A stretch of DNA of 12,547 nucleotides from a virus. Taxonomy: Duplodnaviria; Heunggongvirae; Uroviricota; Caudoviricetes. The stretch is from IMG/VR virus record IMGVR_UViG_2675903434_000005, one strand, 5' to 3'. Positions 4,751-10,967 of this stretch are shown piece after piece. Below the pieces are notes generated by a model that was not told where the DNA came from, searched no databases, and saw only the letters and a list, made by a program, of their open reading frames with translations. Numbering within the stretch: the stretch's first letter is position 1; each line of letters opens with the position of its first letter. The position numbers and the translations under genes were made by a program.

Positions 4751-4808
4751 AAAAAGGGCGGCAGAGCAGTCACGGAGTAAAACTGATACCGCCAAACGTC
4801 ACCAGAAA
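4751..4808 (-). ncRNA. dicF: DicF small regulatory RNA (antisense regulator of ftsZ and other mRNAs)
   Basis: Minus-strand sequence TTTCTGGTGACGTTTGGCGGTATCAGTTTTACTCCGTGACTGCTCTGCCGCCCTTTTT matches the E. coli DicF sequence as I recall it, including the 3' U-tract terminator. It lies between the ydfC-like gene and dicB, as in Qin. Confidence 0.7.
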
Positions 4809-9376: not shown

Positions 9377-9469
9377 TTAAATTTAGCTCTGTTAAAAATT
9401 TAATCCTTAACCGGAGGGATTTCTGCACCCTCAGAACATCAGGAGGCCGCCCGAAAGGGCGGTAGTTAA

Positions 9470-9652
9470 ATGCGAAAGTTTAAAATAATTATTGAAACGG
9501 GAATAGCCGGTGGAGATTTCGAGGATGAATTCGAAGTGGATGATGATGCGACGCCTGATGAAATACATGACGAAGCAAAAGATATTTTCTTTAACTACTG
9601 CAATTACTCATATCACGAAATAAAAGACGAAGAGGAAGAACAAAATGGCTGA
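9470..9652 (+). CDS. Small highly acidic protein (60 aa, about 21 Asp/Glu against 5 Lys/Arg)
   Basis: ORF track 9470..9652. An AGGAGG Shine-Dalgarno lies 23 nt upstream, with a GC hairpin between it and the ATG. Confidence 0.55.
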   Translation: MRKFKIIIETGIAGGDFEDEFEVDDDATPDEIHDEAKDIFFNYCNYSYHEIKDEEEEQNG

Positions 9653-9821
9653 TTTTGGTTCAACTAAATACAACGTCAGTTTTGAAGAATGGCATGAACT
9701 GTTAATGGACTATGCAGAGTTACGTGGTGGCAGTGCTGCTGATGCTGAAGCATGGCGTGATGATTATGAAGCAGGAAAAACTCCGGTCGAAGCATATTGT
9801 GATGAGTGGGGCGATGAATGA
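9645..9821 (+). CDS. Small acidic Trp-rich protein (58 aa)
   Basis: Translated by hand: MADFGSTKYNVSFEEWHELLMDYAELRGGSAADAEAWRDDYEAGKTPVEAYCDEWGDE. GAGGAAG Shine-Dalgarno about 7 nt upstream; overlaps the upstream stop and ends in an ATGA overlap with the next ORF. Confidence 0.5.
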   Translation: MADFGSTKYNVSFEEWHELLMDYAELRGGSAADAEAWRDDYEAGKTPVEAYCDEWGDE

Positions 9822-10134
9822 GCGAGGTTAATTATCAGGAAGGGCATGAAACGGCGGGGCAAGCAAAAACAGTGGCATGGCGATATCGCTACGTGAAAAA
9901 AAAGGCGTTACGGACTTTCAGGGGAAGTAGTGGTCTGGTGACTGGAAATATGTACCGAAAAAAGAGGATTGTAACGACAGGCCGAACTATGAAATTCAGG
10001 CCTTATTCACTGCCCCGCCAGTCCCGGTTACATCAGAAGAACTGGTTAAAGCTGTGCACTTTTATGAACAACTAAAACGCGAAAATCCACCAGCATCCGG
10101 AAACCTGATTACAGATTCCCAGATAAGGCAATGA
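9818..10134 (+). pseudogene. Disrupted coding region: ATG-initiated frame and stop-coupled frame differ by -1 (frameshift pseudogene or programmed frameshift)
   Basis: Frame A (ATG 9818, coupled to the upstream stop) becomes Lys/Arg-rich and ends at 10075. The -1 frame holds a protein-like 67-codon stretch (WSGDWKYVPKKEDCNDRPNYEIQALF...DSQIRQ) ending in TGA 10132-10134 coupled to a downstream ATG, but has no start and follows TAG 9928-9930. A_AAA_AAG heptamers are phased in frame A at 9898-9904 and 9958-9964. Confidence 0.4.
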
Positions 10135-10229
10135 GCTACCTGGCGCAGAACGGGCTGATAAGTATGGGGAATGTTTTACGATGAATATTTAGACTAAAGA
10201 GTTTGTAACGCTATGTAAGTGATTTTTTC

Positions 10230-10258
10230 TGGTTTAGATATTTATATGTCCGGCCAAA
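10230..10258. repeat. Upstream copy of an imperfect ~30-bp direct repeat flanking the AT-rich membrane-protein gene
   Basis: TGGTTTAGATATTTATATGTCCGGCCAAA here versus TGGTTTAGTTGGATATTTACTGTGCCGGACAAA at 10501-10534. Confidence 0.5.
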
Positions 10259-10304
10259 TTGAGGTGTGTTTAAATGTAATTGCACATTGATTGTAGGAGG
10301 AATA

Positions 10305-10484
10305 ATGAAAAACGCATTGCAGTTTTTGTTTGTTGCGTTCTGGTTGTTCGTATCATGTATGCCCATCATCTTCACAGCAAGGTATATGGAAAAAGTTGAT
10401 GTTTTGATATTAATATTTGGATATATAAATGCCCTTTTTTTAGGGGTGTTCATGGCGGTCATGTGCATTGAATACTGGCGGTAA
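10305..10484 (+). CDS. Small two-helix membrane protein (59 aa) on an AT-rich islet
   Basis: Part of ORF 10266..10484. Start chosen at ATG 10305, with a perfect AGGAGG 5 nt upstream. Two hydrophobic helices (ALQFLFVAFWLFVSCMPIIF and VLILIFGYINALFLGVFMAVMCI). GC is visibly lower than in the flanks. Confidence 0.55.
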   Translation: MKNALQFLFVAFWLFVSCMPIIFTARYMEKVDVLILIFGYINALFLGVFMAVMCIEYWR

Positions 10485-10500
10485 ATACAGCGAACGCCAT

Positions 10501-10534
10501 TGGTTTAGTTGGATATTTACTGTGCCGGACAAAA
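10501..10534. repeat. Downstream copy of the ~30-bp direct repeat, immediately upstream of the candidate hok promoter
   Basis: See the repeat at 10230-10258. Confidence 0.5.
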
Positions 10535-10539
10535 ACGGT

Positions 10540-10567
10540 TTGCGGGGAAATCTTAGTTAAGTAGAAT
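10540..10567 (+). promoter_or_regulatory. Candidate hok mRNA promoter
   Basis: TTGCGG (10540-10545), 16-bp spacer, TAGAAT (10562-10567). The predicted transcript start falls at about 10574, inside the 5' element that is complementary to the mRNA 3' end. Confidence 0.4.
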
Positions 10568-10686
10568 GACTGCGGGTGCTTGAGGCTATCTGTCTCAGGC
10601 ATGAACACCAAAAGGCAGATAGAGAAAAGCCCCAGTTAACATTACGCGTCCTGCAAGACGCTTAACATTAATCTGAGGCCATATCT

Positions 10687-10746
10687 ATGCGACACATAGA
10701 GATTAGCCTCTTACGGACCGAAAGGTCAAGGAGAAGCAGGCTATGA
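10687..10746 (+). CDS. Short leader ORF translationally coupled to hok (mok-like, 19 codons)
   Basis: ATG 10687 with GAGG upstream; its TGA stop (10744-10746) overlaps the hok ATG (10743-10745) as ATGA. Confidence 0.35.
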   Translation: MRHIEISLLRTERSRRSRL

Positions 10747-10898
10747 AGCAGCAAAAGGCGATGTTAATCGCCCTGATCGTCATCTGTTTAACCGTCATAG
10801 TGACGGCACTGGTAACGAGGAAAGACCTCTGCGAGGTACGAATCCGAACCGGCCAGACGGAGGTCGCTGTCTTCACAGCTTACGAACCTGAGGAGTAA
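10743..10898 (+). CDS. hokD: Hok/Gef-family type I toxin (51 aa), RelF/HokD-like
   Basis: Translated by hand: MKQQKAMLIALIVICLTVIVTALVTRKDLCEVRIRTGQTEVAVFTAYEPEE, which has the Hok/Gef signature (single TM helix, TRKxLCE, conserved periplasmic tail). AAGGAG Shine-Dalgarno upstream. Position before the Rem-like and YdfU-like genes matches Qin hokD. Confidence 0.8.
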   Translation: MKQQKAMLIALIVICLTVIVTALVTRKDLCEVRIRTGQTEVAVFTAYEPEE

Positions 10899-10967
10899 GA
10901 GACCTGGCGGGGGAGAAATCCCTCGCCACCTCTGATGTGTCAGGCATCCTCAACGCACCCGCACGTA

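Follow-up and report, generated by a model that had tools for sequence, protein, structure and literature searches.

A slippery heptamer within the probable remains of a phrog_660 gene in an E. coli prophage

Our window (the whole stretch of DNA analysed here, 12,547 nucleotides) is the early part of a lambdoid prophage of E. coli and contains, at 9818-10184, a reading frame that opens with an ATG and a second frame, displaced by -1, that ends in a coupled ATGA, with a dnaX-type heptamer, A_AAA_AAG, placed where a ribosome might pass from the one to the other. The original prediction left three explanations of this arrangement, namely a programmed frameshift, an amber/nonsense pseudogene, or a homopolymer sequencing error, and the question is which of them accounts for the locus. 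Comparison with intact homologues indicates that 9818-10184 is very probably what is left of a small accessory phrog_660 gene, a pseudogene inactivated several times over and split over all three frames. Judged from these alignments, it is a case of ordinary gene decay and not of programmed recoding. The locus is already recorded as a pseudogene in RefSeq by PGAP with the remark "frameshifted; internal stop".

Layout of the locus and its setting in the prophage

The features described in the original prediction are present in the sequence, with the correction that the A8 run occupies 9896-9903. The ATG at 9818 overlaps the stop codon of the upstream 58-aa gene (ATGA, with the TGA at 9819-9821) and opens an ORF of 85 codons that ends at 10075. 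The heptamer AAAAAAG occurs at both 9898-9904 and 9958-9964, in each case in the X_XXY_YYZ phase, with its first A the third base of a frame-0 codon. As proposed, a -1 slip at 9958-9964 would lead into EDCNDRPNYEIQALF...SQIRQ and on to the TGA at 10132-10134, a stop that overlaps an ATG at 10131, and the junction peptide predicted for such a slip is ...GNMYRKKEDCNDRPNYEIQALF... (...NMYRKK/EDCNDRP..., the stroke marking the junction). The ATG at 9877 likewise opens the -1 frame, which the TAG at 9928-9930 closes after 17 codons. The short ORF at 10131-10184 does consist of 17 sense codons and a stop, but its reading as a separate small gene did not survive alignment, which identifies it as an orphaned ancestral C-terminus.

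The number of heptamers offers no additional signal. AAAAAAG is found five times on the two strands of the window, as compared with 4.2 +/- 2.0 in shuffled sequences, and 88 of 200 shuffles reach five. The non-random part of the locus is the broken reading frame, which intact homologues explain, the heptamer number being at chance level.

Gene order in the window begins with an integrase, an excisionase, a large exonuclease and the DicF sRNA, continues with an S24-peptidase (cI-type) repressor, Cro, YdaT, a replication protein and DUF977, and then passes through small genes of unknown function (phrog_1621, DUF7167/phrog_1997 and phrog_519) to the disrupted ORF, an AT-rich islet, hok/sok, DUF968 and RusA. 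The disrupted ORF sits in the early-right region, flanked by the replication genes on one side and the hok/sok-DUF968-rusA block on the other. DicF (4756-4807, minus strand; Rfam, 76.7 bits, full length) belongs to the early-left operon, and a related prophage in E. coli MS6198 carries the same early-left operon with dicB and ydfABC-like genes. In a zero-offset comparison, the window and MS6198 are colinear only from about 6900 to about 11100, and the left arm of the window's prophage, integrase included, is unlike that of MS6198. At least 30 complete genomes of E. coli (all 30 of the matches listed) contain the 1.1 kb around the locus at 100% identity, and 638 records match it at 99% or better.

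Immediately upstream, two small genes at 9470-9652 (60 aa) and 9645-9821 (58 aa) overlap by 8 nt, and the ATGA at 9818 follows. These overlaps suggest that the start of the pseudogene is still translationally coupled to its neighbours, and because of this apparently retained coupling an 85-aa junk peptide is probably produced.

Downstream lies the AT-rich islet (10185-10500; GC 0.31-0.38), which contains, on the plus strand, an unannotated hydrophobic 59-aa ORF (MKNALQFLFVAFWLFVSCMPIIF...) running from the ATG at 10305 to a TAA at 10482-10484, with an AGGAGG at 10295-10300 immediately 5' of the start. Searches of this ORF against Pfam, NCBIfam and PHROG gave no match; the stretch is left blank by PGAP, and phage records place there an 85-aa ORF on the opposite strand, named "hornerin". 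The prophage that carries the intact 171-aa gene discussed below (L006) has a different short segment in this place, and on that account the islet looks like a moron-type cassette swap. Directly beyond it is a complete type I toxin-antitoxin module of the hok/sok type, with sok at 10574-10745 (plus strand; Rfam match, 106.7 bits) and the hokD CDS at 10743-10898 (plus strand). In a scan of the whole window at Rfam gathering thresholds only sok and DicF were matched, and none in 9818-10184; a scan of 9400-10950 for promoters and terminators returned one promoter-like match on the minus strand and zero terminators, fewer than in shuffled sequences.

Comparison with intact phrog_660 genes

Homologues of the disrupted ORF exist as single uninterrupted ORFs of 171, 141 or 104 aa. 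Intact versions of 171 aa (WP_001289995.1, in L006) and 104 aa (WP_001529162.1, in L003) occupy the same position in related prophages, as does the 141-aa example P0034, each following the DUF7167 and 58-aa genes and preceding hok/sok. These genes are 90-95% identical to the window at the nucleotide level, and all three remnants of the window's gene align with them. Against the 171-aa gene the window gives four aligned blocks, with 75-95% nucleotide identity per block, and a conceptually repaired translation of the window shares 68-85% identity with the other sequences in the alignment.

The intact 171-aa protein matches phrog_660 with E = 6e-72 over model positions 34-193 of 193, thus reaching the end of the model. 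PHROGs, in which phrog_660 is annotated as of unknown function, provided its only family match; Pfam and NCBIfam searches of the same protein returned no significant family, and a sub-threshold match to AphA_like (E = 0.026) was disregarded. The phrog_660-type family comprises 1567 uninterrupted proteins in a search clustered at 90%, or 474 representatives at 50% identity. An AlphaFold2 model of the 171-aa homologue has a mean pLDDT of 52.5, too poor for a fold search, and its only moderately confident part is a small beta unit at residues 20-62 (pLDDT about 75). The motif TD...W.GDWKYVP, which is invariant in all 14 intact members aligned, lies inside this predicted unit.

Mosaicism in the family is striking. 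Three modules can be told apart, a beta module at about residues 15-60, a middle one at 60-115 and a C-terminal one at 120-171, and these have been joined by recombination to numerous unrelated N-termini (ead/Ea22-like, DUF551), as can be seen in L006 (601-1113) and in P0034, P0056, P0080, P0089, P0106 and P0043, and in-frame deletions in the family fall between short ENPP/DNPP repeats.

Three lesions set the window apart from the intact genes. The N-terminal remnant, in the ATG frame (9818-9903, plus strand), reads MSEVNYQEGHETAGQAKTVAWRYRYVKK with one extra K from expansion of the run, and aligns codon for codon with the genes of L003 and L006 as far as the A run. The first lesion is the run itself: the homopolymer at 9896-9903 is A8 in the window and A6 in all intact homologues, which read GTG-AAAAAA-GG, and the resulting +2 insertion places everything downstream in the -1 frame. 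The central remnant (9904-10099, plus strand) is accordingly read at -1 relative to ATG 9818, as GVTDFQGK, a stop, and then WSGDWKYVPKKEDCNDRP...ENPPASG. That stop is the second lesion, the TAG at 9928-9930 in the ancestral frame, where intact homologues have CAG (Gln) or CTG.

The heptamer at 9958-9964 also lies in the central remnant and arises from a C-to-A change at 9960. The intact sequence is ACAAAAG, and the substitution converts ACA to AAA, a Thr-to-Lys replacement (T47K) that turns Pro-Thr-Lys-Glu into Pro-Lys-Lys-Glu. It is only in the A8 allele that this heptamer stands in the X_XXY_YYZ phase.

Further along, the window differs in length from the 171-aa form by 90 nt in frame, with the junction at 10079-10080 between ENPP and DNPP repeats. 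This difference is not necessarily a lesion, because intact 141-aa proteins (P0034) share the shorter form. The third lesion is a 61-nt out-of-frame deletion with its junction at 10099-10100, located by pairwise nucleotide alignment, which puts the original C-terminal codons, roughly the last 28, into the third frame and creates a false tail, NLITDSQIRQ followed by a stop. The C-terminal remnant (10100-10184, plus strand) reads KPDYRFPDKAMSYLAQNGLISMGNVLR to the stop and contains the 17-codon ORF at 10131-10184. In BLASTP, the translation of 10083-10181 matched residues 145-171 of the intact 171-aa protein with 17 of 27 residues identical (E = 2e-11), and the ancestral reading frame ended at the TGA at 10182-10184. 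As for the "coupled ATGA" at 10131, its ATG once encoded a Met within the old protein, and the deletion-created frame merely happens to run into it.

Homology to phrog_660 extends along the whole length of the locus, and a single uninterrupted ORF is not found; we have filed it as a phrog_660 pseudogene and not as a functional member because of the +2 frameshift, the TAG and the 61-nt out-of-frame deletion. The pseudogene alternative of the original prediction was right in this sense, although the homologue alignments add a frameshift and an out-of-frame deletion to the nonsense codon that it had in mind. Under standard decoding, the 85-aa ORF at 9818-10075 (plus strand) joins 28 native residues to 57 out-of-frame residues.

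The annotation in RefSeq agrees in substance. PGAP calls a pseudogene in every identical copy inspected, including those of MS6198, strain 98203 and O104:H4 2009EL-2071, and the sequences of MS6198_RS31675 (E. coli MS6198, NZ_CP015834.1) and O3O_RS32025 (O104:H4 2009EL-2071) are 100% or 99.7% identical to that of the window. Described as "hypothetical protein; frameshifted; internal stop", the PGAP pseudogene corresponds to window 9818-10134; unlike the present mapping, it stops short of the orphaned C-terminal codons at 10100-10184 and leaves the 61-nt deletion unrecorded.

Run-length alleles and the alternatives to decay

We looked for the 95-97-nt haplotype that spans the run, the TAG and the heptamer by exact match in a set of 5,426 complete genomes of E. 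coli. The TAG-plus-heptamer haplotype was found with A6 in 423 genomes, with A7 in 75 and with A8 in 353. Among the loci compared individually, L004, L009 and L012 have A6, L005 and L010 have A7, and the window, L001, L002, L008 and L011 have A8. The ATG frame yields products of 36, 40 and 85 aa from A6, A7 and A8, respectively, and no run length in the TAG lineage yields a full-length protein. All three products are found in a public protein collection, the 40-aa and 85-aa products each on at least 1000 contigs. The alleles are further distinguished by linked SNPs, V4 and T18 being common to A7 and A8, and I4 and P18 being found in A6.

Within the A6 group, L004 (NZ_CP010315.1) carries at 601-1022 a 423-nt version of the pseudogene in which a further CAG has become TAG and 4 nt have been deleted, the phage record PhiR42_1 (L012) has a pseudogene of the same type, and the neighbouring DUF7167 gene of L004 (253-435) also has an internal stop. 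The prophage lineage of L004 is thus one in which several small genes of the block are decaying together, in a pattern of continuing decay.

A functional dnaX-type frameshift would start at ATG 9818, slip by -1 at the A_AAA_AAG at 9958-9964, and yield a 105-aa fusion ending at the TGA at 10132-10134. Much in the A8 allele is suggestive of this. Relative to the ATG frame the heptamer has the X_XXY_YYZ phase, the -1 frame runs open from it as far as 10134, and the allele is common and stable, being carried by 353 complete genomes, with at least 1000 contigs that encode its 85-aa product. The arrangement is also neat, in that the +2 shift steps over the TAG and an in-phase A_AAA_AAG follows 55 nt downstream. 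Few motifs in E. coli are as prone to shift as A_AAA_AAG, and unselected occurrences of it exist in weakly expressed genes (PMC5009743). Given the neat geometry and this proneness to shift, the A8 allele probably does give rise to some trans-frame product.

The comparison with intact genes, however, runs against a programmed event. In the alignment to intact prophages that the original prediction had proposed as a check, the ancestral single frame was conserved and the heptamer was absent from every intact homologue examined; one uninterrupted ORF with A6 and ACAAAAG is what was found, the very outcome that the prediction had named as telling against its recoding alternative. The heptamer occurs in the A6 and A7 alleles too, in which no frame can be restored by it, so that in more than half of the carriers of the TAG haplotype it is unable to connect any frames at all, and the relation between the frames varies with A6, A7 and A8 such that the two-frame layout is itself not conserved. 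Moreover, the product of the slip would have TD..W.GDWKYVP replaced by ALRTFRGSSGLVTGNMYR, and would be missing the C-terminal module as well.

In E. coli dnaX, A_AAA_AAG has an SD-like element on its 5' side and a stem-loop on its 3' side; in sites of this type the former is expected about 10 nt from the heptamer, and the latter, which may also be a pseudoknot, at a distance of 5-8 nt. The window's A8 allele shares the heptamer and the correct phase with dnaX, but differs from it in having no flanking stimulator, no conservation of the heptamer or of the two-frame layout, and a predicted product that is disrupted. The 18 nt upstream of the heptamer (9940-9957, GACTGGAAATATGTACCG), read directly, contain no GGAGG- or AGGGAG-like element. 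The 70 nt downstream (9965-10034) fold with an MFE of -14.6 kcal/mol, where shuffles average -13.3 (z = -0.49, 61 of 200 shuffles as good or better), and the RNA downstream of both heptamers folds no better than shuffles. In E. coli reporters without stimulators, heptamers raise frameshifting only 2- to 10-fold over a background of 0.055% (PMC4066793). Of the features that characterise dnaX-type sites, then, the phase is found (in A8 only), and an upstream SD-like element, a downstream fold more stable than in shuffles and conservation are not. The comparative data already largely refute a programmed frameshift, and we regard a functional one at this site as very unlikely. As for the heptamer of the A8 run, a slip there (or transcriptional slippage) leads back into the ancestral frame, where the TAG terminates the product at about 37 codons.

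A weaker form of the same proposal is that A8 is an adventitious "amber bypass", in which the +2 shift carries ribosomes past the TAG at 9928-9930, an unstimulated -1 slip at 9958-9964 (probably 0.5% or less) returns a few of them to the ancestral frame, and a partly active 105-aa chimera explains why the allele is so common. There is a parallel in the "compensatory" frameshifting of herpesvirus thymidine kinase G-run mutants (PMC5009743), where an indel is likewise combined with a shift-prone site and few ribosomes could reach the downstream frame. The window differs from those mutants in that its rescued product would still be without the invariant motif and the C-terminal module, and in that nothing points to selection for it; we hold such a bypass, too, to be very improbable.

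Alternatively, the A run might be a phase-variable contingency tract, switched on and off by slipped-strand mispairing, and the polymorphism of the tract (A6, A7 and A8 on otherwise identical 95-97-nt haplotypes) is what such a locus would present. A length that restores the full ORF, however, is not found: in the lineage with the variable tract no length does so, given the TAG at 9928-9930 in the ancestral frame, and all intact alleles have A6. A tract of A6-A8 is also short for efficient phase variation. We regard a contingency locus as extremely unlikely.

An equally slight chance attaches to the 85-aa ORF at 9818-10075 being a new, functional, overprinted protein that is translationally coupled to the upstream gene. 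The ATGA would provide the coupling, the ORF is predicted by gene callers on no fewer than 1000 contigs, and 57 codons of the alternative frame are without a stop; yet an open stretch of that length is unremarkable, with a probability of about 0.07 in random sequence by our own estimate of (61/64)^57. In the sister A6 and A7 alleles, moreover, the product shrinks to 36 or 40 aa, a family match is obtained for the region only through the ancestral frame, and PGAP treats it as a pseudogene.

That the gene is intact apart from an error of sequencing or assembly in a homopolymer, namely the A8 run and possibly also the A6 of the second heptamer, can be dismissed as next to impossible, for although homopolymers are error-prone and the run is A6, A7 or A8 in different assemblies, the identical 97-nt A8 haplotype recurs in 353 complete genomes, its 85-aa product lies on at least 1000 contigs from NCBI, ENA, JGI and Logan, clinical isolates assembled with SPAdes from HiSeq reads also carry the allele, the linkage of V4 and T18 with A7/A8 and of I4 and P18 with A6 marks the lengths as inherited alleles, and correction of the run would leave the TAG and the 61-nt deletion in place. 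Two records, vB_EcoS-640R1 and 813R8, were considered as viable phage carriers of A8 and rejected as such, being PHASTER-predicted prophages from Illumina assemblies and not isolated virions; their Illumina origin means that A8 is not a long-read artefact, and they are uninformative on dispensability for lytic growth.

A proposed history of decay

With decay as the preferred reading, a history of the locus can be suggested, the order of the mutations being inferred from the states that the alleles share. A gene of the 141-aa type would first have gained the amber codon, which is common to all alleles with a variable run, and function would have been lost, most simply through this shared TAG. 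The A run may then have drifted freely among A6, A7 and A8 by replication slippage. The 61-nt deletion could have followed the loss of function, or alternatively could have been acquired by recombination, since the otherwise intact gene of L003 carries the same deletion. Recombination among these mosaic prophages is evident from L003, which has the 61-nt deletion without the TAG.

The phase of the second heptamer with the ATG frame would in this history be a by-product of the expansion to A8. Standard decoding would give only the 85-aa junk peptide, coupled translationally to the upstream gene, and a -1 slip, whether at the one heptamer or at the other, would amount to noise on which selection does not act.

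A homopolymer indel, a chance point mutation to A_AAA_AAG and ATGA overlaps made by a deletion can between them mimic a designed two-frame gene, and the locus provides a worked example of a decaying gene that imitates a recoding signal, a resemblance resolved by comparison with intact alleles. For the prophages themselves, the three exact TAG haplotypes put the number of complete E. coli genomes with an inactivated phrog_660 gene at 851 or more, of roughly 1,750 that match the locus, which is consistent with the gene being dispensable in the lysogen.
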